A stretch of DNA of 64,000 bases. Origin: a virus. Below, in pieces: positions 13,031 to 33,114 of the stretch. Every line of letters begins with the position of its first letter. Position 1 is the first letter of the stretch. The position numbers and the translations under genes were made by a program. The notes under the pieces are model-generated. The model ran no database searches. It saw only the letters and a program-made list of their open reading frames with translations, and was not told the origin of the DNA. The stretch spans positions 13,033 through 77,032 of the IMG/VR virus record IMGVR_UViG_3300048834_001178. One strand, given 5' to 3'.

Positions 13031-13064
13031 ATGTGGGCAACTGCGTCCGCGATGTGGGCAACTG
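13031..13064. repeat. 13-bp direct repeat ATGTGGGCAACTG with 21-bp period, in the divergent intergenic region
   Basis: Copies at 13031-13043 and 13052-13064. Confidence 0.7.
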
Positions 13065-13081: not shown

Positions 13082-13342
13082 ATGACTCCCGAACACGCGC
13101 CTAGTTCCGGGCCCCACGGCGCATCGGGACAGGGAACCTCCCGGCTCAACCCCGCCGCGCTTGGCGTCGCGGACGCCGCGCGCGTGCTCTCGCGGATCGG
13201 GGGCAAGCCCGTCACCGAGGAAATGCTCCGTGCCGACATCGACGCGGGCGCGCCGACGAACGCGAACGGCACGATCAACCTCGTGCACTACGCCGCGTGG
13301 CTCGTGAAGGAGATGTCTGTGGGGGGTGCTGGTGGCGATTGA
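13082..13342 (+). CDS. Small winged-HTH protein, probable terminase small subunit-like
   Basis: GGAGG RBS; directly upstream of TerL and similar to the TerL N-terminus. Confidence 0.6.
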   Translation: MTPEHAPSSGPHGASGQGTSRLNPAALGVADAARVLSRIGGKPVTEEMLRADIDAGAPTNANGTINLVHYAAWLVKEMSVGGAGGD

Positions 13343-15617
13343 CCCGCGCCAACTCAAGCCCGGCGAACTCGCGCGGCTGCTCAACAGCACGCCGCTGGGC
13401 GAGGTGATCAGCGAGCGGCAGCTCCATAGGCATCGCACGCGCGCGGGGTTCCGTGTCGCGGCCGACGGCGACGGGGGCAAGGTCGATCTCTTTCGTTACG
13501 TGGCGTGGCTGGTGACGACGCGGCACGAGGCCCTGGCCGAGGCGGCCCGCACGCCCGAGGGGCTCACGGGCTACGAGGCGATGAAGGAGCGGGCCCGGCT
13601 CCGCAACGCCATGCTCTCGCTGTCGGGCCGCGACATCGGCGACCTGCCTCCCGTCGGTGACCCCGCGCGGCGTGCCCGGGCCGCGAAGGACTTCCGGTAC
13701 TTCTGCGAGACGTACTTCGGGCAGACCTTCCATCTCAAGTGGTCCGACGACCACCTCAAGGTCATCGCCAAGATCGAGCAGGCGGTGCTGGACGGCGGGC
13801 TGTTCGCGATGGCGATGCCGCGCGGGTCGGGCAAGACGAGCCTGTGCGAGGTGGCTTGCCTGTGGGCGCTGCTGTACGGGCACCGCGAGTTCGTCGCCCT
13901 CATCGGCTCGGACGAGGAGCACGCGGCGGGGATGCTCGAGTCGATCAAGGCGGAGCTGGAGAACAGCGAAATCCTTGGGGCCGACTTCCCGGAGGTCTGT
14001 CATCCCATCCGCTCCCTCGAAGGCATCCACCAGCGCGCCTCGGGCCAGCTCTACCAGGGCAAGCAAACACACATCGGGTGGACAGCCCGGGAGATCGTGC
14101 TGCCGACCATCCCGGGCTCGGCGGCGTCGGGCGCGATCATCCGCGTCGCCGGGATCACCGGCCGCATCCGGGGCATGAAGCACAAGCGCGTTGACGGCGT
14201 AAGCGTCCGTCCGTCGCTCGTGCTGATCGACGATCCGCAAACCGACGAGAGCGCCCGCTCGCCGTCGCAGTGCGCCACCCGCGAGCGGATCCTCGCCGGC
14301 GCGATCCTGGGCCTGGCCGGCCCGGGCCGGAAGATCGCCGGGCTCATGACGCTGACGGTTGTACGCCCCGACGACCTGGCCGATCGCATCCTCGACCGGG
14401 ACAAGCACCCGCAGTGGCAGGGCGAGCGGACCAAGATGGTGTACTCGTTCCCCGCCGCAGACCGCTTGTGGGCCGAGTACGCCCGGCTGCGAGCCGAGGG
14501 ACTCAAGGCCGACCGGGGCGGAGCGGAGGCGACCGCCTTCTACAAGGCGCATCGCGCTGAGATGGATGCCGGCGCGGTCATCGCCTGGCCCGAGCGGTTC
14601 AACCACGACGAACTCTCCGCTGTGCAGCACGCGATGAACCTGCGGCTGCAGAACGAGGCGGCGTTCTTCGCGGAGTACCAGAACGAGCCGCTCCCGGAGA
14701 TCGAAGTCGCGGACGACCTGCTGAGCGCCGATCAGATCGCCGCCAAGGTGAACGGCCACGCCCGCGGGCTGGTCCCCCTGGCGTGCTCGCACCTGACGAT
14801 GTTCGTGGACGTGCAGGGCAAGGCCCTGTTCTACCTCGTGGCCGCCTGGGAGGACGACTTCACGGGGCACGTCATCGACTACGGCACTGAACCGGACCAG
14901 AAGCAGGCGTACTTCACGCTCCGCGACATCAAGCGGACGCTCGGGGCCGCTTCTCCCCGTGCCGGCGTCGAGGGTGCGATCTACGGCGGGCTTGAGCGTC
15001 TCATCGAACAAACCGTTGCCCGCGAGTGGCGGCGCGACGACGGCGCGATGGTGCGAATCGACCGTTGCTTGATCGACGCCAACTGGGGATCGTCCACGGA
15101 TGTGGTCTACCAGTTCTGCCGCCAGAGCCCGCACGCCAGCGTTCTGACGCCCAGCCACGGCCGCTACGTCGGCGCGAGCAGCCTGCCTTTCAGCGACTAC
15201 AAGCGCAAGCGGGGCGAGCGGGTCGGGCTGAACTGGCGCGTCCCGGTGGTCACCGGCAAACGCGCTGTGCGGCATGTGCTCTTCGACACGAACTTCTGGA
15301 AGTCGTTCGTGCATGCACGGCTGGCGGTGCCCATGGGTGACCCGGGAGGGCTGTCACTGTTCGGCCACAAGCCGGAGCACCACCGCCTGTTGGCGGAACA
15401 CCTGACCAGCGAGTACCGGGTGCGGACCGAGGGACGTGGCCGCACCGTCGACGAGTGGAAGCTCCGCATCGAGGGCCTTGACAACCACTGGCTGGACTGC
15501 CTGGTCGGCTGCGCCGTGGCGGCGTCGATGGAGGGGGCGGTGCTATTCGGGACGGACGCGAAGGTGGTCGCGCGGCCACGGCTGAAGCTCTCGCAATTGA
15601 GGAGAGGCAAGTCGTGA
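13326..15617 (+). CDS. Terminase large subunit (GpA-like C-terminal endonuclease)
   Basis: Walker A MPRGSGKTS, Walker B LVLIDD, nuclease motifs FVDVQ and NHWLDCLVGC; upstream of portal. Confidence 0.88.
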   Translation: MLVAIDPRQLKPGELARLLNSTPLGEVISERQLHRHRTRAGFRVAADGDGGKVDLFRYVAWLVTTRHEALAEAARTPEGLTGYEAMKERARLRNAMLSLSGRDIGDLPPVGDPARRARAAKDFRYFCETYFGQTFHLKWSDDHLKVIAKIEQAVLDGGLFAMAMPRGSGKTSLCEVACLWALLYGHREFVALIGSDEEHAAGMLESIKAELENSEILGADFPEVCHPIRSLEGIHQRASGQLYQGKQTHIGWTAREIVLPTIPGSAASGAIIRVAGITGRIRGMKHKRVDGVSVRPSLVLIDDPQTDESARSPSQCATRERILAGAILGLAGPGRKIAGLMTLTVVRPDDLADRILDRDKHPQWQGERTKMVYSFPAADRLWAEYARLRAEGLKADRGGAEATAFYKAHRAEMDAGAVIAWPERFNHDELSAVQHAMNLRLQNEAAFFAEYQNEPLPEIEVADDLLSADQIAAKVNGHARGLVPLACSHLTMFVDVQGKALFYLVAAWEDDFTGHVIDYGTEPDQKQAYFTLRDIKRTLGAASPRAGVEGAIYGGLERLIEQTVAREWRRDDGAMVRIDRCLIDANWGSSTDVVYQFCRQSPHASVLTPSHGRYVGASSLPFSDYKRKRGERVGLNWRVPVVTGKRAVRHVLFDTNFWKSFVHARLAVPMGDPGGLSLFGHKPEHHRLLAEHLTSEYRVRTEGRGRTVDEWKLRIEGLDNHWLDCLVGCAVAASMEGAVLFGTDAKVVARPRLKLSQLRRGKS

Positions 15618-23684: not shown

Positions 23685-25679
23685 GTGGCCGACACCCGTG
23701 GCATCCGAGCAGGCCGAGCCTTCGTTGAGCTGGGCGTCAGCGACAAGCTGTCGGCCGGGCTGAAGGCGGCCCAGAAGAAGCTCGAAGCCTTCGGCGCGGG
23801 GCTGCGGTCCATCGGCACCAAGATGGCAGGCATCGGCGTCGCGGCGATCACCGCGCTGCTTGGCACCGCGAAGGCCTTCTCCGACTCCGGCGATGCGCTC
23901 GACAAGATGAGCGCCCGCACGAGCGTGAGTGTCGAGGCCCTCAGCGAGCTCGGTTACGCGGCCGACCTCTCCGGCACGGACATGGAGACGCTGGAGAACG
24001 GCCTCCGCGTCATGCAGAAGACGCTTACGGAGGCGTCGCAAGGCTCCAAGGGGGCGAACGAGGCTCTCGCGCGGCTCGGGCTGACGGTGCAGGACCTGGC
24101 CAAGCTCTCCCCCGACGAGCAGTTCAAGCTCCTGGCCGATCGCATCTCCCGCATCCAGGACCCCGCAGCCCGCGCCGCGATGGCGATGGAACTCTTCGGC
24201 AAGGCGGGGACGAAGCTCCTGCCGCTCATGGCCGACGGAGCAGCGGGCATCAACGAGATGCAGGAGCAGGCCCGCAAACTCGGGCTGACGGTGAGCACGG
24301 AGACGGCCAGGGATGCCGCCGAGCTCAACGACGCGCTGGGCACGCTCTGGAAGGTCCTCAAGCAGGGTGTCTTCACGATTGGCGGGGCGCTCGCACCCAC
24401 CATCAAGGACCTCACAGAGCGGATCACACGCATCGTTGTGAGCGCCACGGCGTGGGTGAAGGCGAACAAGGAAGCGGTGGTCTGGGCGCTCAAAGTCGCG
24501 GCGGCGGTCGCGGTCGCGGGGATTGCCATCGTCGGCCTGGGCTACATCATCTCCGGCATCGGCGCGGCGCTTAGCATCGTGGCCGCCGTCATCGGCGGGA
24601 TCGGGACGGCATTCAGCCTGATCGGGGCCGCCATCGGCGCGATCCTCACGCCCGTCGGCCTGACCATCGCCGCGATCGTGGCGCTGGGCGGCACATTGCT
24701 GGTCGTCACCGGTGCGGGCGGCGAGGCCCTTTCGTGGCTGGCGGAGAAGTTCACCGAGCTGCGTGACTGGGTCGGCAAGGTGGTGGGCGGCATCTCCGAT
24801 GCTCTTGCCGCCGGCGACATCGCACTCGCAGCCGAGATCCTGTGGCTGTCGCTCAAGGTCATCTGGCAGCAGGGTGTGGCGGCGCTCAACAATGCGTGGC
24901 TCGGCGCGAAGGAGTTCTTCGTCTCCACGGCCTACTCGATGTGGTACGGCGCTCTGGCTGCGGCCGAGATCGTGTTCCACGCACTCGAGGTCGCGTGGAT
25001 CGAGACGACCGCCTTCCTGTCAAAGACCTGGACCAACTTCGCCACCGGCTTCCAGATGATCTGGGAGGAGGCGTCGAGCTGGGTCGCCAAGCGGATGCTG
25101 GAGATCCAGGGGCTGTTCGATGACGGGCTGGATGTTGAAGCCGCCAAGAAGGCGGTGGACCAGCAGCTCGAGTCCCGCCTCATCGAACTGGAGAACGCTG
25201 CTCAGCAGTCGGTGACCGCACGCGAGGGGCAGCGCGAACAGCAGCGCCGCGATGCGGCGGCGATGCACGAAGCGACGCTGTCCGCGATCGGCCAGGACTT
25301 CGAGAACGCACAGGAAGCCCTGCGCAAGGACACCGAGGCCGGGTTCGCCGAGTCACAGGCGGCGCTCGACGCCGCGAAACAGAAACTCGCCGCCGCGATC
25401 GAGGAGGCCCGCAAGAAGCGCGAGGCCGCCGACGCGGAGAAGGGACCTGGTCGTCCCCAACGCGACCTCCTCGCGGACTTCGAGGAGCGGCTGTCCGGCC
25501 TCGGGGCGGCCATCGGCAAGGGCATCAGCGTCACCGGGACGTTCAGTGCGGTGGCCGTCTCCGGTCTGGGCACGGGTGGCGACGCCGCCGAGCGCACCGC
25601 CAGCGCCACCGAGCAGACCGCCCGCAACACCAAGCGTCTGCTGGATGCCAGCGTCGACAACGGGCTGCGGTTTGCCTGA
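23685..25679 (+). CDS. Tape measure protein
   Basis: Long Ala/Gly-rich helical protein; LSELGYAA, MELFGKAGTKLLPLM, central hydrophobic stretch. Confidence 0.9.
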   Translation: MADTRGIRAGRAFVELGVSDKLSAGLKAAQKKLEAFGAGLRSIGTKMAGIGVAAITALLGTAKAFSDSGDALDKMSARTSVSVEALSELGYAADLSGTDMETLENGLRVMQKTLTEASQGSKGANEALARLGLTVQDLAKLSPDEQFKLLADRISRIQDPAARAAMAMELFGKAGTKLLPLMADGAAGINEMQEQARKLGLTVSTETARDAAELNDALGTLWKVLKQGVFTIGGALAPTIKDLTERITRIVVSATAWVKANKEAVVWALKVAAAVAVAGIAIVGLGYIISGIGAALSIVAAVIGGIGTAFSLIGAAIGAILTPVGLTIAAIVALGGTLLVVTGAGGEALSWLAEKFTELRDWVGKVVGGISDALAAGDIALAAEILWLSLKVIWQQGVAALNNAWLGAKEFFVSTAYSMWYGALAAAEIVFHALEVAWIETTAFLSKTWTNFATGFQMIWEEASSWVAKRMLEIQGLFDDGLDVEAAKKAVDQQLESRLIELENAAQQSVTAREGQREQQRRDAAAMHEATLSAIGQDFENAQEALRKDTEAGFAESQAALDAAKQKLAAAIEEARKKREAADAEKGPGRPQRDLLADFEERLSGLGAAIGKGISVTGTFSAVAVSGLGTGGDAAERTASATEQTARNTKRLLDASVDNGLRFA

Positions 25680-25708: not shown

Positions 25709-26527
25709 GTGCCGGTCGAGGTGTTTGAGAAGTTCGAGAGCCGCCGCTCCACCAAGGCGAACCAAGCCTCGCAGTCGTCTGCGGAGCTCGGCTACATCGT
25801 GCGCGGCACCGCCGACGACCTCGCGGCCCGCACCGCAGCGCAGGCGGCCTCCCCGGCAACCTACGACACGCTCCCTCGCCAGACCATCCAGATCGAGCCC
25901 ATCGGCCCGCAGCTGTGGGACGTCACTGTCCGCTACAGCCAGAACGCCTCCACCGGCACGAGCACCCCGAGCGAGTCCTCGTTCACCTTCGAGACCGGCG
26001 GCGGGACGCAGCACATCACCCAGAGCCTGCAGACCATGCAGCGCCGCCCCGCCCCCGGCACCACCGCGCCGGACTTCGGCGGAGCGATCGGCGTCACCGC
26101 CGACGGCGTTGAGGGCGTCGACATCACCATCCCGGTCTACCAGTTCTCCGAGACGCACTACTTCACCGATGCCCAGGTCACCGCTTCGTACAAAGGCGCG
26201 ATCTTCTCCTGCACGGGCAAGACCAACGCCGGCTCATTCCGCGGGTTCGCGGCCGGCGAGGTGCTCTTCCTCGGCGCGACGGGCTCCAAGCGCGGCGACG
26301 GCCCGGATGACGACTGGGAGATCACGTTCCGCTTCGCGGCGAGCCCCAACCAGACCAACCTGACCGTCGGTCCCGTCACCGGAATCAACAAGAAAGGCTG
26401 GGAGTACCTGTGGGTCCGCTACGCCGACGCGGAGGACTCGGGCTCGGGCGCGATCATCAAGAAACCCATCGCCGCGTACGTCGAGCGCGTGTACGACCAG
26501 GCCAACTTCGGAGCACTCGGAATCTAA
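25709..26527 (+). CDS. Putative distal tail/baseplate protein
   Basis: Directly after tape measure; beta-rich composition; AAGGAG RBS. Confidence 0.6.
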   Translation: MPVEVFEKFESRRSTKANQASQSSAELGYIVRGTADDLAARTAAQAASPATYDTLPRQTIQIEPIGPQLWDVTVRYSQNASTGTSTPSESSFTFETGGGTQHITQSLQTMQRRPAPGTTAPDFGGAIGVTADGVEGVDITIPVYQFSETHYFTDAQVTASYKGAIFSCTGKTNAGSFRGFAAGEVLFLGATGSKRGDGPDDDWEITFRFAASPNQTNLTVGPVTGINKKGWEYLWVRYADAEDSGSGAIIKKPIAAYVERVYDQANFGALGI

Positions 26528-26530
26528 AGC

Positions 26531-27571
26531 ATGCCCGACGACCTCCGCAAAGTCCGCTCCGGTCAGCCGCTCCGCATCCCCGCGGGCGCGTACAACGCGT
26601 TCGTCGATGCGGCGGTCGATCTGCGCGCGCGACAGGGGCGGGGCCAAGCCGTCGCCGGTCCTCTCGTCGAATCCGCCCAGCGTGGTATCGGCGTGGTGCT
26701 GGTCCGCAACGATTCGGACGAGCTGATCGAGCCGCACCACGCGCTGGCGATCACCGGCGTGCTGGTCGAGCCCGGTGAGGACGATCAGGAGCGAACCTTC
26801 CACAGCCGCACGCCTCTGACGGGCGATGTGGCGACCGAGGTGTCCGACATGCTCGCCTTCGCGGTGGCGCTCCAGCCGATCAAGCCCAATGCCCTCGGTC
26901 CCTGCGTGCTCACCGGCGTGACGACCGCCCGGGTCTACATCACCAATGAGACCGACACCACCTGCGAACTCGCGGCCGACGAGACGGTCCTGGCGAGCAC
27001 GCCCATGAGCGGCATTCCGATCCTGTGGAAGGAGGATGGCACCGGCGAGAAGTGGGCGGTGATCGAACTCGGCCGCCCCTCGCCGGGACGCATTACCGCG
27101 ATCCTCGGCGCGGCCCAGCCGATCCCCACCGAGCGCAACCGCTGGCGCTACCCGTGGGTCGAGGCTCAGATCGACGGCAACCCGGGCAGCCCGGACTACC
27201 TGCGCTACGTGCCGGTCGAGAACGGCCTGACCTCGCAGGCCCCCAGCGGCGGCGAGGACCCCACGCGCCTGGCGATCAACCGCCTCGAGGCCCACCACAT
27301 GAACGACTCCGAGCCCGGCTCGGGGTTCGGCGGCCTGCTGGGGCTGGGCCCGGTGTGCGAGCTCCCGGGCGTGCTCCCCAAGTGCCCGCCCGCGCGATCG
27401 CTCAAGCCCAAGCTCGTGCCGATCCCCGAAGGCGTGTGCGTGCAGATGACTTGCGAGCGCAACAGCCGGGGCAAGCCGGTGTGGGTCTTCGTGGCGATGA
27501 GCTTGATCGAGATCGCCGACCCCGCCGACGAGGACCGCAAGTTCAACCTCTACATCGGAGGTGCTGAATGA
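26531..27571 (+). CDS. Putative tail tip protein
   Basis: In operon after the distal tail gene; no recognisable family motif. Confidence 0.5.
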   Translation: MPDDLRKVRSGQPLRIPAGAYNAFVDAAVDLRARQGRGQAVAGPLVESAQRGIGVVLVRNDSDELIEPHHALAITGVLVEPGEDDQERTFHSRTPLTGDVATEVSDMLAFAVALQPIKPNALGPCVLTGVTTARVYITNETDTTCELAADETVLASTPMSGIPILWKEDGTGEKWAVIELGRPSPGRITAILGAAQPIPTERNRWRYPWVEAQIDGNPGSPDYLRYVPVENGLTSQAPSGGEDPTRLAINRLEAHHMNDSEPGSGFGGLLGLGPVCELPGVLPKCPPARSLKPKLVPIPEGVCVQMTCERNSRGKPVWVFVAMSLIEIADPADEDRKFNLYIGGAE

Positions 27572-28161
27572 CAACGACCACACCGGCACAGGCAACGCCG
27601 CTGGATGCCAAGCGTGCCAAGGAACGGGCCAAGTACCTGGCGCTGGCGAACAAGCCCGGCTCGAAGTACGGCTCGTCCAACCACGGCCAGGCGGCGATCC
27701 CGCTCATCCAGGAGAGCAAGCCGAGGTTCGTGGTGGACTTCGGCTGCGGCCGCAACGACCTTGTCCGCGAGCTGCGGCGCCTCGGCATCGACGGGCTGGG
27801 CGTCGACTTTGCCTTCCCCGAGGCGGACCTCGTGCGCCCCATGCACGCGACCACCCTCCAGGCGGGCATCGCCGACGTGGTGACGAGCTTCGACGCTCTC
27901 GAGCACCTCCTGCCCGAGGATGTTGACCTGACGCTCGCGGAGATGCGCCGCGTCGCGGTGCCGCGCGGACGGTTCATCCTCTCGATCTGCACGCGGCCGA
28001 GCACGACCACCGTCGCCGGAGAAGGTCTGCACCCGACGGTGCGTCCGCGGGACTGGTGGCTCGACCGCATCGCCCGCGTCGGCGTCGCGAGCAAGCCCAG
28101 GGCGGGGTCCCGCTACATCGTCGGGCGGTTCAAAAGTGATGGGGGGTGCTGCGGTGCGTGA
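27568..28161 (+). CDS. Class I SAM-dependent methyltransferase
   Basis: VVDFGCGRN, GVDF, DVVTSFDALEHL. Confidence 0.85.
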   Translation: MTTTTPAQATPLDAKRAKERAKYLALANKPGSKYGSSNHGQAAIPLIQESKPRFVVDFGCGRNDLVRELRRLGIDGLGVDFAFPEADLVRPMHATTLQAGIADVVTSFDALEHLLPEDVDLTLAEMRRVAVPRGRFILSICTRPSTTTVAGEGLHPTVRPRDWWLDRIARVGVASKPRAGSRYIVGRFKSDGGCCGA

Positions 28162-29068
28162 GAACCAGTCCGACATCGCGGCGCTTCAGTCCGGGCTCAA
28201 GGCGCGCAAGCCCGCCCGTGATGGCCTGCGCCTCTACACCGCCCCGCCGACGTTCGAGTCGGTGTCGCTGAGCGGGTTCTACCGGGGCCGGTCCGCGTTC
28301 CTGATGCTCTCCGGTCCGTCGCTCAAGCAGATCGACCTGTCGCTGCTGGACGCCCGCGGCATCGTCACGATGGCCGTCAACAACGCATGGTCCGTGCGGC
28401 GTCCGACGCTCTGGACCTGCGTTGATGACCCCGGGCGCTTCATCGATGTGGGCTGGAAGGACCCGGGCATCCTGAAGTTCGTGCCCACGTGCATGTGGGA
28501 AAAGCGGCTGAAGGTGATGAACCCCGACGGCACGCTCCGCAACAGCGCCTTCAAGGTCCACCAGATGCCCGGCGTGCTGTTCTTCCGGCGCAGCGATCAC
28601 TTCGACCACGAGCGATTCCTCACGGGAGACACGGTCTCATGGGGCAACGACGCGAAGAACCCCGACTCGCTGGGCATCACCGGCAAGCGCTCGGTCATGC
28701 TCGTCGCCCTCCGGCTGCTTTACTACCTCGGCTTCTCGACGGTGTACCTGCTCGGCTGCGACTTCAAGATGGACGCGGAGCGCAAGTACGCCTTCGACGA
28801 GCACCGCGCGACCAACGCGATCCGGCACAACAACGTGCTGTATGACTCGCTGTCGCGCCGGTTCGAGGCGCTCAAGCCCCACTTCGAGAAGCACCGCTTC
28901 CGCGTGGTCAACTGCTCGCCCGGAAGCGCCCTGGAGGTCTTCGAGAAGATGGCCTTTGAGGACGCGGTGAAGGCAGCCGCTTCCGAGTGCGGCAAGCCGA
29001 TCCGCACCGACGGGTGGTACGAGCCCAATCCCAAGGCGAGCGCCCCGCCACAGGAGGCCGCACGATGA
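28154..29068 (+). CDS. MAF/MptE(DUF115)-like nucleotide-sugar transferase fold protein
   Basis: AFLMLSGPSL, TMAVNNAW, ALRLLYYLGFSTVYLLGCDF, VVNCSPGSAL. Confidence 0.65.
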   Translation: MRENQSDIAALQSGLKARKPARDGLRLYTAPPTFESVSLSGFYRGRSAFLMLSGPSLKQIDLSLLDARGIVTMAVNNAWSVRRPTLWTCVDDPGRFIDVGWKDPGILKFVPTCMWEKRLKVMNPDGTLRNSAFKVHQMPGVLFFRRSDHFDHERFLTGDTVSWGNDAKNPDSLGITGKRSVMLVALRLLYYLGFSTVYLLGCDFKMDAERKYAFDEHRATNAIRHNNVLYDSLSRRFEALKPHFEKHRFRVVNCSPGSALEVFEKMAFEDAVKAAASECGKPIRTDGWYEPNPKASAPPQEAAR

Positions 29069-30579
29069 GCGACGGCCCCACGCGGTACTACCTCTACATC
29101 CCCGTCTGGGCGACGGGACGCGCTCCCCAGGGCGGCGGGTCGAGCAACTACTCGACGCCGTCGGGCTCGACACCCGAGAGCACGTACTCGACCCCGACCA
29201 GCACGCCGAGCATGCCGCCGAGCTACTCGACGACGGGCGATGTGATCTACACGACCGGCCCGGGCGGCACGCCCACGCTCACGTTCTACACCACCGGCGC
29301 GTTCACGAGCAACACGCCGGGGACGACGCACACGCCGTCGAGCAGCGGGCCGATGTCATCCAGCGGGATGACCACCGACTCGTCGCAGACGCCGACGAGT
29401 TCGCAGACCCCGTCGAGCACGGGCTCGTCGGGCATGAGCAGTTCCGGTGGCGGGAGTTCCTCGGGGGCGTCGAGTGGCATGTCCTCGGGTGCGAGTTCGG
29501 GGGCGTCGTCGGGCATGTCCACCGGTGGCAGTTCCGGTATGTCCTCGGGCATGTCGTCGGGTGGGTCGTCCGGTGGTTCATCGGGCGGCGGTTCGTCCGG
29601 TGGCGGGTCGTCGGGCGGCGGCGGATCCAGCGGCGGCGGCAGCGGCCCCGGTGGGTCGGGTCCGGGCGGATCCGGGCCTGGCGGCTCGGGGCCGGGTGGT
29701 TCTGGCCCGGGCGGCAGCGGTCCCGGCGGCTCAGGTCCCGGCTCCAACTGCGTGCTCGCGGGCACACCCGTGATGCTGGCCGACGGATCGACTAAGCCCG
29801 TCGAGGCGCTCCAACCGGGCGACCGTGTCGCGGCGCTCGACGTGGCGGGCCTGGACCGCGACGTGCCGTGGCGAGCCCAGTACCAGTGGCTCCGTCCGTG
29901 GGCGGAGGCGGCGCTCACGCCCGTCACGGGCACCGTCGGCAGCGTGAAGATCGGATCGCACGACGGGTTCGTCACCATCAACGGCCGCCTACGCCTGACG
30001 CCCGAGCACCCGGTGCTGCTGAAGCGCAACGAGGAGATCGGCTTCGCGTCGGCGGAGTTCGTGCAGGTCGGCGATGCGCTCGTGCGCCAGGGCCTGAGCG
30101 AGGAACTCGTCGCGTCAGTTGATCGGTCGGGCGAGCGCGTGACGACAGTGGCCGTGCATGTGCCCGGACTCAACGTGTTCCTGGCGGGCGGCGTGTGGAT
30201 TCACAACGACATGCCCGCCACCCAGCAGAGCGGGTCCGGATCGTCGTCGGGTTCGGGGTCGAGTTCAGGCTCCGGGTCCGGGTCGTCGAGCGGGAGCGGC
30301 TCCGGCAGCGGAAAGTCCAGCGGCTCGTCCATGTCGAGCTCGGGGTCCAGTTCTGGGTCGAGTTCCGGCAGTTCGTCAGGCTCATCGAGCGGCAGCGACA
30401 GCGGCTCCGGCCCGCCCGGCTCCGGATCGGGCTCCGGCAGCGTCCAGCAGTCAGTGGCGCTGGGCGAGGGCGCATCGTCCTTCATCGAGGGTGGCATGGA
30501 GGGTGTGCCTCCGGCGAAGTGGCAGCAGAGCGGTTTGGGCAGTCTCAGCAGCGGCATCGAAGAGGAGGCAAAGGCGTGA
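29065..30579 (+). CDS. Ser/Thr/Gly-rich low-complexity protein with central Hint (intein-like) domain
   Basis: Hint 29749-30207: CVLAGTPVMLADG, LTPEHP, WIHN; flanked by SSG and SGPGG repeats. Confidence 0.85.
   Translation: MSDGPTRYYLYIPVWATGRAPQGGGSSNYSTPSGSTPESTYSTPTSTPSMPPSYSTTGDVIYTTGPGGTPTLTFYTTGAFTSNTPGTTHTPSSSGPMSSSGMTTDSSQTPTSSQTPSSTGSSGMSSSGGGSSSGASSGMSSGASSGASSGMSTGGSSGMSSGMSSGGSSGGSSGGGSSGGGSSGGGGSSGGGSGPGGSGPGGSGPGGSGPGGSGPGGSGPGGSGPGSNCVLAGTPVMLADGSTKPVEALQPGDRVAALDVAGLDRDVPWRAQYQWLRPWAEAALTPVTGTVGSVKIGSHDGFVTINGRLRLTPEHPVLLKRNEEIGFASAEFVQVGDALVRQGLSEELVASVDRSGERVTTVAVHVPGLNVFLAGGVWIHNDMPATQQSGSGSSSGSGSSSGSGSGSSSGSGSGSGKSSGSSMSSSGSSSGSSSGSSSGSSSGSDSGSGPPGSGSGSGSVQQSVALGEGASSFIEGGMEGVPPAKWQQSGLGSLSSGIEEEAKA
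29638..29745 (+). repeat. 15-nt coding tandem repeat, about 7 x (GSGPG), synonymously diversified
   Basis: Translation GSGPGGSGPG...; codons differ between units. Confidence 0.8.
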
Positions 30580-31199
30580 TTCCGAAGGTCATCTACACGG
30601 CGGACCTCATTGAGACTCCCGACAAGCAGCGGCTCACGGCGTGGCGGCACGCGTGGCAAACCATGCACCCCGAGTGGGATGTGGTGACGCTCACGCTAGA
30701 CACCAAGCCGCCGATCCTGAACTACGACCAGTGGCAGCAGACCTTCGGGCTCGCCGAGCCCGCGGCGTCCGCCGCACGGCTGAACCTGCTCCGCTACGAA
30801 GTGCTGGCCCGCGAGGGCGGCGTCTTCGTCGATCCGGACCGACTGCCGCTGCGCCCGCTCGACGAACTCGTCGCCGGGGTTGGCGCGTTCTGTTCCACGA
30901 TCGCCAGCCACGGCGCGAGCAGGCCGCACATGCTCTCGCCGTCGGTGCTCGGCGCGACGCGGAATCATCCGATGCTCTGGCACGCGATCCGCGATCTGCC
31001 GCACTCAGTGCTGGTCTATCGCGGTGTGTGGGACCAGAGCGGGCCGGGCTTCCTCACCCGCGTGGTCCGCGACCACGGGCACTTCCGCGACGTGGTGCCG
31101 TTCCACTGGGCGATCTTCGAGCAGGGCGAGGACGCCGCCAAGGCCCACGGCGGCGCGTTCGCCTTCGTGCAGGCGAAGGCTGCGGAGGTGGTGGCGTGA
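30576..31199 (+). CDS. Glycosyltransferase family 32 (DxD, OCH1-like)
   Basis: IPKVIY, NLLRYEVLAREGGVFVDPD, SGPGFLT. Confidence 0.8.
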   Translation: MIPKVIYTADLIETPDKQRLTAWRHAWQTMHPEWDVVTLTLDTKPPILNYDQWQQTFGLAEPAASAARLNLLRYEVLAREGGVFVDPDRLPLRPLDELVAGVGAFCSTIASHGASRPHMLSPSVLGATRNHPMLWHAIRDLPHSVLVYRGVWDQSGPGFLTRVVRDHGHFRDVVPFHWAIFEQGEDAAKAHGGAFAFVQAKAAEVVA

Positions 31200-31900
31200 G
31201 CACGGCCGCACGCACCACCTCAATCCCGCGGGTCCTGCACCAGATCTGGCTGGGCAAGGGCGAAATGCCGCTCAATCAGCGGCGCTGGCGGCGGCGCTTT
31301 GCCGAGATGAACCCGCACTGGGAGATGCGGCTGTGGACCGACGGCAACCTGCCGCCGATCCTCAACCGCAACGCCTGGGACGCCTGCGGCAACGTCGGCG
31401 GCACGCCCGGCTGCGTGATGCGGTCGGACATCCTGCGGCTGGAGGTACTGGCCCGGTTCGGAGGGGTCTATCTCGACACCGACGTGAAGCCGATCCGCCC
31501 GCTCGACGAGATGTGTCCGCCCGAAGTACGAGCGTGGGCTGCCTGCGAGCAACTCGACATCGTGTCCAACGCGGCGATGGGGTTCCCGCCCACCCACCCG
31601 GCGATGTGGCACGCGGTGGCGATGATCGAAGAGTCGTTCTTCGAGCGCCGGTACGTCGGTGATCAGGCGGGGCCGGGCCTGATCGCGCGGGTGGTCACCC
31701 AGTACGACGACGTGGTGCTCTATCCGCCGACGTACTTCCACCCGACGGTCGGAGAGTCGAAGTCCAATCCCGACGCAGCGAGGTTCCTTCTGGGCGCGCA
31801 CCTGTTTGCCGGGACTTGGGTTGAGGCCAATCGATGGCGGTACGCGAGCGCGTGGGACGCCAACGCACTCTCTGAGAATCCGCAAAGTCTCAGCGAATAG
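31196..31900 (+). CDS. Glycosyltransferase family 32 (DxD, OCH1-like)
   Basis: IPRVLHQIWLG, RSDILRLEVLARFGGVYLDTD, AGPGLI, HLFAGTW. Confidence 0.88.
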   Translation: MSTAARTTSIPRVLHQIWLGKGEMPLNQRRWRRRFAEMNPHWEMRLWTDGNLPPILNRNAWDACGNVGGTPGCVMRSDILRLEVLARFGGVYLDTDVKPIRPLDEMCPPEVRAWAACEQLDIVSNAAMGFPPTHPAMWHAVAMIEESFFERRYVGDQAGPGLIARVVTQYDDVVLYPPTYFHPTVGESKSNPDAARFLLGAHLFAGTWVEANRWRYASAWDANALSENPQSLSE

Positions 31901-32100
31901 CACCCCCTGGTGATCGCTGCTGATGCGCCTGTGGCTGGCACAGATCCAAGTCTAGTGAAAAGCAGGCTCGTGGTGCGGAGGGCAAACGACTCCCACGGGC
32001 CTCGCTCAAGCGCTCTACCCTTCAATCCTATCCACTCGGCGGCAGGCATGTTCGCATGCTGATCGGGTTGGTAGTACAATGGCCAGCGAGCATCTCCCGC

Positions 32101-33114
32101 ATGACACCCCCGGCAACCAAGAAACCGCGAGCAAAGACACCCAAGTCATCCCAGACTGGCACTGTTGGCCCCCGATGGCCGACCGTGGCACTGAACCCAG
32201 TTGCCACGCCAGACTCGGCATTCATGAACCGCGAGTTGCGCCGGCACGCATTCTACAGCGACGACCGGACTCTCATCTTCTGTGCGGATGCAGCGAAAGC
32301 GATTGGCTGGCTGGTCTCCGCAGGTGTGACCGTGGATACCACCGTCACTTCACCGCCCTTCTACGGCCAGCGGGACTACGGCGTCGATGGGCAAATCGGT
32401 TTGGAGTTGCACCCGTCAGAGTACCTGTCCCGTCTGGTGTCAGTCTTCCGAAAGTGCCGCGAGGTCTTCAAGGAGACCAGTAGCCTGTGGGTCAATCTTG
32501 GCGATACGTACTGGAGTGGTCGAGGCGAGCACCGCAGTGGAGAGGCCAAACAGGCAGCGAGGCGATTCGGACTTCGACCCCAGGACCGCAAGGGCGATGG
32601 GATTTGGTGCAGGCCGAAGCAACTCCTACTCATCCCACATCGTTTCGCAATCGCCATGCAGGAAGCTGACTGGATCCTCCGCAACGACAATGTGTGGGTC
32701 AAACCCAATCCGGTCCCAGACCAAGTAAGAGATCGCTGCTCGATGGGGCACGAGTATGTTTTTCACTTCGTGACCCAACGGTTCTATTACTACCGTCGCG
32801 ATAGAGTCGGTCGGCCAAACCCAGGCAAATCGCCCTTGCCACCGTTGGACGTTTGGGTGGTTCCGCCGTCCAAAGGTAGTAACGGACATCCTGCTGCGTT
32901 CTCTGCCGACTTGGTTGACCTACCGATCCGTGCGACAACTCCGCCGAATGGCGTGGTATTGGACCCGTTCGCTGGAAGCGGTACAACGGTCTTGCATGCC
33001 CGCAGGCTCGGCTTCCGCGCGATCGGCATCGACATAAAGCCGGAATACTGTAAGGCGATGGCCGCAGCCTGCCAAAAGGACCCACCGATTCTGCTGCCGC
33101 TCTCTGAGAAGTGA
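32101..33114 (+). CDS. N4-cytosine/N6-adenine DNA methyltransferase (beta class); start uncertain
   Basis: VTSPPFYGQRDY, WVNLGDTY, HPAAF, VLDPFAGSGTT. Confidence 0.9.
   Translation: MTPPATKKPRAKTPKSSQTGTVGPRWPTVALNPVATPDSAFMNRELRRHAFYSDDRTLIFCADAAKAIGWLVSAGVTVDTTVTSPPFYGQRDYGVDGQIGLELHPSEYLSRLVSVFRKCREVFKETSSLWVNLGDTYWSGRGEHRSGEAKQAARRFGLRPQDRKGDGIWCRPKQLLLIPHRFAIAMQEADWILRNDNVWVKPNPVPDQVRDRCSMGHEYVFHFVTQRFYYYRRDRVGRPNPGKSPLPPLDVWVVPPSKGSNGHPAAFSADLVDLPIRATTPPNGVVLDPFAGSGTTVLHARRLGFRAIGIDIKPEYCKAMAAACQKDPPILLPLSEK

Follow-up and report, generated by a model that had tools for sequence, protein, structure and literature searches.

A type-A-BIL-like Hint domain and a companion lysine motif in a predicted fibre protein of a Phycisphaerae prophage

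The window analysed here is a stretch of 64,000 nucleotides from a 77-kb IMG/VR virus record (IMGVR_UViG_3300048834_001178, positions 13,033 to 77,032 of that record), and our subject is a gene near the end of a prophage tail operon within it. This gene encodes a 504-residue protein (P0001), termed here the fibre/Hint protein, in which a Hint domain is embedded between low-complexity arms. Its ATG at 29065 lies 7 nucleotides downstream of an AGGAGG and overlaps the stop codon of the upstream gene as ATGA, and its own stop codon overlaps the GTG of the next gene as GTGA, that GTG being preceded by GAGGAGG; by this arrangement the gene is translationally coupled to its neighbours. An open reading frame (ORF) on the opposite strand (29286-30173) reflects the low complexity and high GC content of the sequence and was set aside as an artefact. 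The features of the gene are as follows, T2 being a tail-module protein encoded three genes upstream.

29065..30579, + strand: fibre/Hint protein gene, 504 residues (P0001), homologues found
29065..29349, + strand: conserved N-terminal region, residues 1-95, with the RYYLYIPVWATG motif and a Pro/Thr/Ser-rich stretch; most constrained part of the protein
29350..29634, + strand: Ser/Gly/Thr/Met low-complexity spacer, residues 96-190, predicted to be disordered
29635..29748, + strand: GPGGS repeat tract ending at Asn228 (position -1), six full units plus GPGS, codons diversified
29749..30207, + strand: Hint (type-A-BIL-like) domain, Cys229-Asn381, 153 residues, from Pfam, AlphaFold2, Foldseek and profile comparison with the PDB
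29998..30009, + strand: block-B TPEH (T312, H315), invariant in the family
30202..30210, + strand: His380-Asn381 followed by Asp382 at +1, from the sequence and homologue alignments
30313..30333, + strand: K417-SSGSSM motif with the first Lys after the Hint domain, from homologue comparison
30481..30528, + strand: conserved C-tail motif FIEGGMEGVPPAKWQQ, common to proteins fused to T2 (loci L071 and L090) and to alleles without the Hint domain

Only residues 229-381 fold in the AlphaFold2 model computed with the family alignment (predicted local distance difference test score, pLDDT, >90). A Foldseek search with this domain returned 64 PDB matches at E<=1e-3, every one of which is a bacterial intein-like (BIL), intein or Hedgehog domain. 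The top match is the BIL domain of C. thermocellum (2LWY; TM-score 0.84 on the target), the second is Tetrahymena BIL2 (6Y75), and these are followed by mini-inteins and Hedgehog (including 1AT0). A profile of 15 family members likewise found 2LWY as its best match in the PDB (9.5e-7); phmmer with the single Hint sequence gave only noise-level PDB matches (designed 'Cake' proteins). The initial annotation of this DNA had read a BIL-type Hint domain between low-complexity arms, with a first Cys at 29749, an LTPEH motif and a terminal His-Asn followed by Asp, and the fold, the motifs and the +1 residue all agree with that reading: Cys229 occupies 29749-29751, T312-H315 fall at 29998-30009, His380-Asn381 at 30202-30207 and the +1 residue is Asp382. 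The catalytic residues that it had singled out for comparison across homologues are indeed conserved, C229, T312, H315 and H380 being invariant in the close subfamily (alignments A1 and A4) and N381 nearly so (kept in at least 90% of sequences, with Thr in one relative).

Among 102 unique Hint-bearing homologues, drawn from Phycisphaerae prophages and viral contigs, the first Cys, the T..H pair and the penultimate His do not vary and the terminal Asn hardly does. The +1 residue is almost never a nucleophile (D in 90, T in 6, A in 3, N in 2 and Y in 1), and no homing endonuclease is present. Type-A BIL domains are defined by a terminal His-Asn without a +1 nucleophile; they chiefly cleave, but an attack of the freed amine on the thioester can bring about ligation (PMC4031507). 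The window protein gave no match to Pfam PT-HINT (PF07591), a family matched at E<=0.01 by 6 of 15 divergent relatives, more than any other Hint family. Taken together, fold, motifs and conservation indicate a Hint fold of the BIL kind. The domain appears type-A-BIL-like and is best called a new subfamily of Hint domains, since the window protein reaches no Pfam Hint family cut-off.

The arms flanking this domain are strongly biased in composition (29% Ser, 29% Gly, 13% Thr and 10% Pro in the N-arm; 41% Ser and 25% Gly in the C-arm) and match no family in PHROGs, Pfam, NCBIfam or the ESM Atlas. About seven GPGGS units had been counted in the initial annotation; six are exact and the seventh is truncated to GPGS. 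Its remark on their codons holds, as the units are identical in peptide sequence and match at only about 72-76% of nucleotides, and the variation in repeat number to which it pointed is found across homologues, which carry 0-7 units. Its comparison with silk stands for the pentapeptide motif and is otherwise overstated: flagelliform silk has long GPGGX arrays with spidroin terminal domains, whereas the window protein has 6-7 units and no spidroin domains. As had also been annotated, there is no signal peptide or toxin-like C-terminal domain: no signal-peptide-like or transmembrane-like hydrophobic segment was found (the maximal Kyte-Doolittle 19-residue mean, 1.49, lies inside the Hint core, and the 10-residue hydropathy maximum at the N-terminus is 0.81), and the C-terminal 123 residues contain no Pfam domain. 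The RYYLYIPVWATG motif of the N-terminal region recurs in the distant homologues P0006, P0011 and P0014.

An exhaustive HMMER search recovered 905 homologous cluster representatives, and the gene is present at more than 100 syntenic loci. A word-indexed search with residues 222-390 found a single relative (P0002), a limit of that method given the hundreds obtained by HMMER and contig scans. Locus searches with the single proteins P0009 and P0014 likewise returned none, whereas a search built on an alignment succeeded. We computed the ratio of nonsynonymous to synonymous differences (pN/pS) pairwise between clades and region by region, at pS of 0.3-0.7. It lies between 0.02 and 0.4 in most regions: about 0.1 for the N-terminal residues 1-95, about 0.12 for the GPGGS tract, about 0.27 for the Hint domain, down to 40-50% identity, and about 0.1 for the last 45 residues. 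In the most divergent pair (L012), and in no other, the ratio climbs towards 1, there in the low-complexity and C-tail regions. Most regions of the protein are thus under purifying selection, with synonymous sites near saturation. The low pN/pS argues that the arms are not junk linkers, and the diversified repeat codons agree with this. The confident AlphaFold2 fold, the HMMER homologues, the syntenic loci and the low pN/pS together establish that this is not a chance ORF.

Several peculiarities of the wider family were seen in passing. Many wider homologues (P0034, P0046, P0023, P0140 and others) are tandem Hint arrays with 2-3 residues between the units (His-Asn, then Lys-Gly, then Cys). The complete chromosome CP054186.1, a metagenome-assembled genome (MAG) of Phycisphaeraceae, has four copies of the tail/fibre module (L025, L027, L050 and L051), which span two sequence clades, the Hint domain being about 93% identical to that of the window in one and about 78% in the other. 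The module also occurs at L029, L038, L054 and L060, labelled as Cyanobacteria, Acidobacteriota, Vicinamibacteraceae or Nocardioides MAGs, labels that likely result from binning contamination.

A search with an alignment of T2 recovered 279 related viral loci, 80 of which were kept. About nine in ten complete fibre alleles at these 80 loci keep the Hint domain. It is missing from five (L139, L142, L144, L147 and L149), whose T2 is about 74% identical to that of the window and whose sister loci L140 and L146 retain it. The Hint-less proteins, of 319-331 residues, have the N-terminal region and GPGGS tract in common with the window protein, and then pass through a Ser-rich stretch and a beta-rich segment of ~50 residues to the same FIEGG(M/V)EGVPPxxWQ tail. 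The beta-rich segment also takes the place of the arm that carries the Lys motif, and the insertion site is of low complexity. The alleles indicate that a contiguous polypeptide of N-arm and C-tail is a working form of the fibre, which speaks for the flanks being ligated, or at the least for the two fragments working together, and against mere disposal of the C-arm. They also show that the Hint domain travels as an exchangeable cassette.

The prophage that carries the gene occupies the window from position 1 to about 31900, is siphovirus-like, has a G+C content of 0.67-0.70 and encodes a helicase, a primase, a ParB-methylase, a large terminase, a portal, a protease-capsid fusion, a head decoration protein and a tape measure protein. 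The fibre/Hint gene stands in the following neighbourhood, in which it separates the gene for a transferase-like protein, GTa, from two glycosyltransferase genes, GTb and GTc.

23685..25679, + strand: tail length tape measure protein (phrog_8462, 1.4e-49)
25709..26527, + strand: T1, directly 3' of the tape measure gene, no family found
26531..27571, + strand: T2, tail-module protein, its N-terminal ~185 residues fused to linker, Hint domain and Lys motif in related phages
27568..28161, + strand: S-adenosylmethionine-dependent methyltransferase, start overlapping the T2 stop (ATGA)
28136..29068, + strand: GTa, CST-I / MptE(Maf)-like transferase (weak Pfam matches; PHROG sialyltransferase family 5e-12)
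30576..31199, + strand: GTb, GT32-like DXD glycosyltransferase (Pfam)
31196..31900, + strand: GTc, GT32-like DXD glycosyltransferase (Och1 1.4e-7, SetA 3.7e-6, TcdA 2e-4)

The genes of the stretch from T2 to GTc adjoin one another or overlap, with start/stop overlaps throughout. The order from the tape measure gene through T1, T2, methyltransferase and GTa to the Hint gene is kept in close loci of viral contigs, Phycisphaerae and other Planctomycetota genomes, and GTb and GTc follow the Hint gene in the clade of the window and in L071 and L090. T1 and T2 gave no family in PHROGs, Pfam, NCBIfam or the ESM Atlas. No transmembrane or signal segment was detected in the fibre and modifying enzymes (six proteins checked), which implies that the target of modification is cytoplasmic.

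GTc is the final gene ahead of a fall in G+C content from ~0.68 to 0.58 (31900-32060), which probably marks the right prophage end. No tRNA gene was found anywhere in the window, so that this end is without a tRNA mark, and a scan for promoters and terminators did no better than shuffled sequences. Past the fall come a DNA methylase gene (32056-33114) and then a gene for an AAA protein. The loci in which GTb and GTc follow the fibre gene (the window clade, L071 and L090) share the FIEGGxEGVPPxxWQ tail; those without these two genes (L012, L083, L084, L075 and P0002) end otherwise, several of them as G-T-Y-S-(I/L). This association of C-tail and glycosyltransferases could reflect functional docking or simple linkage.

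Fused genes tie the Hint module to T2. At L071, L072, L074, L076, L088 and L090 a single ORF comprises the first ~185 residues of T2, a poly-Ser/Gly stretch, the Hint domain, the Lys motif and a tail, and 15 columns are invariant between the fused N-domains and T2 in alignment A3. The T2-Hint link rests on these ORFs in viral loci and on alignment A3, not on BLASTP, which for P0009 and P0005 against T2 was suggestive only (E about 0.01). In a T2 model of moderate quality (pLDDT 66), the N-domain resembles capsid decoration or cement proteins, the base of the phi29 head fibre and the self-cleaving chaperone of phi29 gp12 (VIA Z 8-10.4), and the C-domain weakly resembles OB-fold spike or hub proteins such as the P2 gpV spike (Z 5-6). 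A derivation of the YYLYIPVW strand at the fibre N-terminus from the 'YLLWIQP' strand of the T2 N-domain was considered and dropped, the likeness being too weak.

Cultured phages provide a parallel. Alcaligenes phage Afa-NA1, Salmonella phage Sen-NF and Erwinia Alexandravirus encode Hint-ended proteins of ~480 residues, annotated 'tail' or 'virion structural' and situated in tail-fibre clusters. In each, an N-domain is followed by collagen G-X-Y repeats and then by a beta domain, and at the C-terminus stands a homologous Hint domain of the form C...T(P/H)EH...HN plus 10-13 residues, about 30% identical to that of the window. A self-processing Hint domain at the end of a phage fibre thus seems, by these sequences, to be a recurrent design; a literature search on phage fibres with Hint or BIL domains returned nothing relevant. 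The tail-fibre cluster of Afa-NA1 (L093, 7619-8845) also holds a gene annotated as a 'putative large intein domain protein'.

We favour, with somewhat better than even confidence, the interpretation that the fibre/Hint protein is a virion fibre, probably glycosylated, and that during assembly the type-A-BIL-like module at its centre cleaves the flanking arms and possibly joins them; its virion location, glycosylation and processing chemistry are what we infer from the relationships described above. On this view a temperate siphovirus-like phage of Phycisphaerae would express, from its late tail operon, a mostly disordered fibre ('hair') rich in Ser, Gly, Thr and Pro, along with four soluble enzymes, one methyltransferase and three glycosyltransferase-like proteins, which probably O-glycosylate and methylate the arms of the fibre. 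By analogy with type-A BILs, an N-to-S acyl shift at Cys229 would convert the Asn228-Cys229 peptide bond to a thioester, and cyclisation of Asn381 would sever the Asn381-Asp382 bond. With Asp at +1 a branched ester intermediate could not arise. The flanks may then be released, or joined through amine attack on the thioester, and the joined product would be a contiguous fibre of N-arm and C-arm, like the Hint-less alleles of related phages.

Several observations weigh against this interpretation. GTb and GTc are absent from many Hint-bearing loci, the T2-fused forms lack the methyltransferase and GTa, and the assignment of GTa, made from sequence matches, is weak. The glycosyltransferase genes are located at the end of the prophage, a position shared by lysogenic-conversion genes. 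The fold matches of the T2 model are leads, by which the fibre could be placed on the head or on the tail. Finally, the Hint domain of the window protein scores below the Pfam thresholds for both Hint_2 (E=3.7e-4, 21.3 bits against a cut-off of 28.4) and Hint (17.2 bits against 29.7).

A different chemistry is suggested by the sequence that follows the Hint domain. The motif K-S-S-G-S-S-(F/M/L/W), abbreviated K-S-S-G-S-S-Φ, or a one-residue variant of it, occurs 5-53 residues after His-Asn in all 102 unique Hint-bearing sequences, its Lys being the first after the Hint domain in at least 97 of them, and in none of the five Hint-less alleles. In the minimal relatives P0012, P0017 and P0031 the protein stops right after the motif, which is the sole conserved feature of their C-extein. 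The motif also stays with the Hint domain on other upstream cargos, namely the T2 N-domain and, in P0007, a NADAR domain (5.8e-25); in P0007 the linker, Hint domain and KSSGSSF follow and the Hint domain ends in His-Thr, not His-Asn, which suggests that the module is able to carry enzyme cargo. In wider homologues the +1 residue is Lys at 55 of 134 junctions, more often than any other. In Tetrahymena BUBL BIL2 (6Y75/6TMM), the second fold match, a Lys amine attacks the thioester and an isopeptide results. The initial annotation, in which the tail-operon setting, the T2 fusions, the Hint-less alleles and the Lys motif did not figure, had proposed that the N-terminal tether may be released or ligated to a sugar, lipid or partner protein; of these acceptors the motif makes a protein amine the candidate, in preference to a lipid or sugar, and by analogy with BIL2 Lys417 as acceptor is a serious possibility. 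We therefore weighed a Lys-directed ligation, in which Lys417 in cis or a virion Lys in trans would resolve the Asn228 thioester to an isopeptide-branched product, with the motif as built-in acceptor or docking site, and judge it a tentative and clearly less probable alternative to the type-A-like processing of the fibre. The facts just listed speak for it; however, AlphaFold2 gives no confident docking of the motif region (residues 410-425) on the Hint domain (pLDDT 35-40), and other roles would fit the motif just as well: a binding peptide, a protease site, or a sequon for glycosylation or methylation. Similarly speculative is the generalisation that Hint domain and motif form a portable, self-contained phage protein-ligation module, which would turn the C-terminus of any upstream cargo (a glycosylated disordered arm, the T2 N-domain or a NADAR enzyme) into a thioester, pass it to the motif Lys or a virion Lys and so form an ATP-independent isopeptide in assembly.

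Alternatively, the genes could be a lysogenic-conversion cassette, whose glycosyltransferases remodel the host envelope and whose Hint protein is a host-cell factor instead of a part of the virion. The cassette is indeed the rightmost part of the prophage, adjoining the G+C fall at ~31900-32050, a common place for morons. However, co-oriented overlapping genes run from the tail genes onwards with no intergenic gap or separate promoter-like site, all six proteins are without a signal peptide or transmembrane segment, the module is fused to T2 in relatives, and cultured lytic phages have, in their tail clusters, fibre-like proteins with a terminal Hint domain; we consider this reading improbable. 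As for a selfish or decaying mini-intein, a parasite without a function that has inserted where low-complexity sequence tolerates it, its mini-intein size, its intein-like His-Asn and its presence or absence between close phages (T2 about 74% identical) are what such an element would show, but we regard it as implausible given the lack of a homing endonuclease, +1 residues (mostly D) that rule out canonical splicing, catalytic residues that are invariant in a domain held at low pN/pS, the constant company of the conserved Lys motif and the large majority of complete alleles that keep the domain.

Set beside known systems, the predicted fibre with its type-A-BIL-like module combines familiar parts in a distinct way. 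It resembles type-A BIL domains (Pfam PT-HINT, 2LWY), which were reportedly described by Amitai in 2003 and Dassa in 2004, in the Hint fold, the N-terminal Cys, the block-B TxxH, the His-Asn without a +1 nucleophile, the location in a variable non-essential protein and the best structural and profile match. In contrast to them, its host protein is a phage fibre and not a secreted toxin or adhesin, it has low-complexity Ser/Gly flanks, an obligatory downstream Lys motif and natural domain-less alleles, and it falls below every Pfam Hint family cut-off. BIL2 shares the fold and sets a precedent for a Lys acceptor, for which Lys417 is the candidate here, but it is eukaryotic, has ubiquitin-like flanking domains and is only 16% identical in sequence. 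Canonical mini-inteins are alike in size, fold, Cys1 and His-Asn, and the Hint-less alleles recall their 'empty' ones; unlike them, the window domain has Asp at +1 in place of C/S/T and lacks a homing endonuclease, and its low-complexity site appears unlike the conserved positions in essential enzymes that inteins occupy. Hedgehog/Hog domains share the Hint fold (the 1AT0 match) and a thioester transferable to an outside nucleophile, but possess a sterol-recognition region and no C-terminal Asn cleavage, whereas here the Hint domain is internal, ends in His-Asn and precedes a conserved C-extein of 123 residues. The self-cleaving C-terminal chaperone domains of phage fibres and spikes (phi29 gp12, Peptidase_S74 type) are comparable as self-removing domains at or near a fibre end. 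The Hint domains of Afa-NA1 and Alexandravirus differ in being terminal, after collagen repeats and with tails of 10-13 residues, in contrast to the internal domain and conserved 123-residue C-arm of the window protein. For the enzymes, there is a precedent in actinobacteriophages, where phage-encoded glycosyltransferases, together with a methyltransferase, reportedly glycosylate virions, with capsid and tail-tube subunits as targets (Freeman 2023, as cited by others). The pairing of phage glycosyltransferases and a methyltransferase with a virion protein target would be the same here; the difference is a dedicated Hint-bearing fibre gene inside the enzyme cluster, whose glycosylation we only predict.

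BIL domains have been known for two decades and their biological purpose is still unclear. The more than 100 loci assembled here make up a large natural family whose setting is defined, namely a phage late operon. They come with built-in comparisons that bear on purpose: alleles without the Hint domain, forms fused to T2 and a Lys motif that strictly co-occurs with the domain. If glycosylation is confirmed, phage virion glycosylation would extend from actinobacteriophages to Planctomycetota. If the Lys motif is the acceptor, the module would amount to a compact enzyme-free ligation tag, and a ligation module of this kind would be a counterpart in bacterial viruses of BIL-mediated ubiquitin-like conjugation.

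Elsewhere in the prophage, the large terminase ORF (13326-15617) is long, at 763 residues, and its PHROG terminase matches fall in two halves, 97-458 and 462-735.

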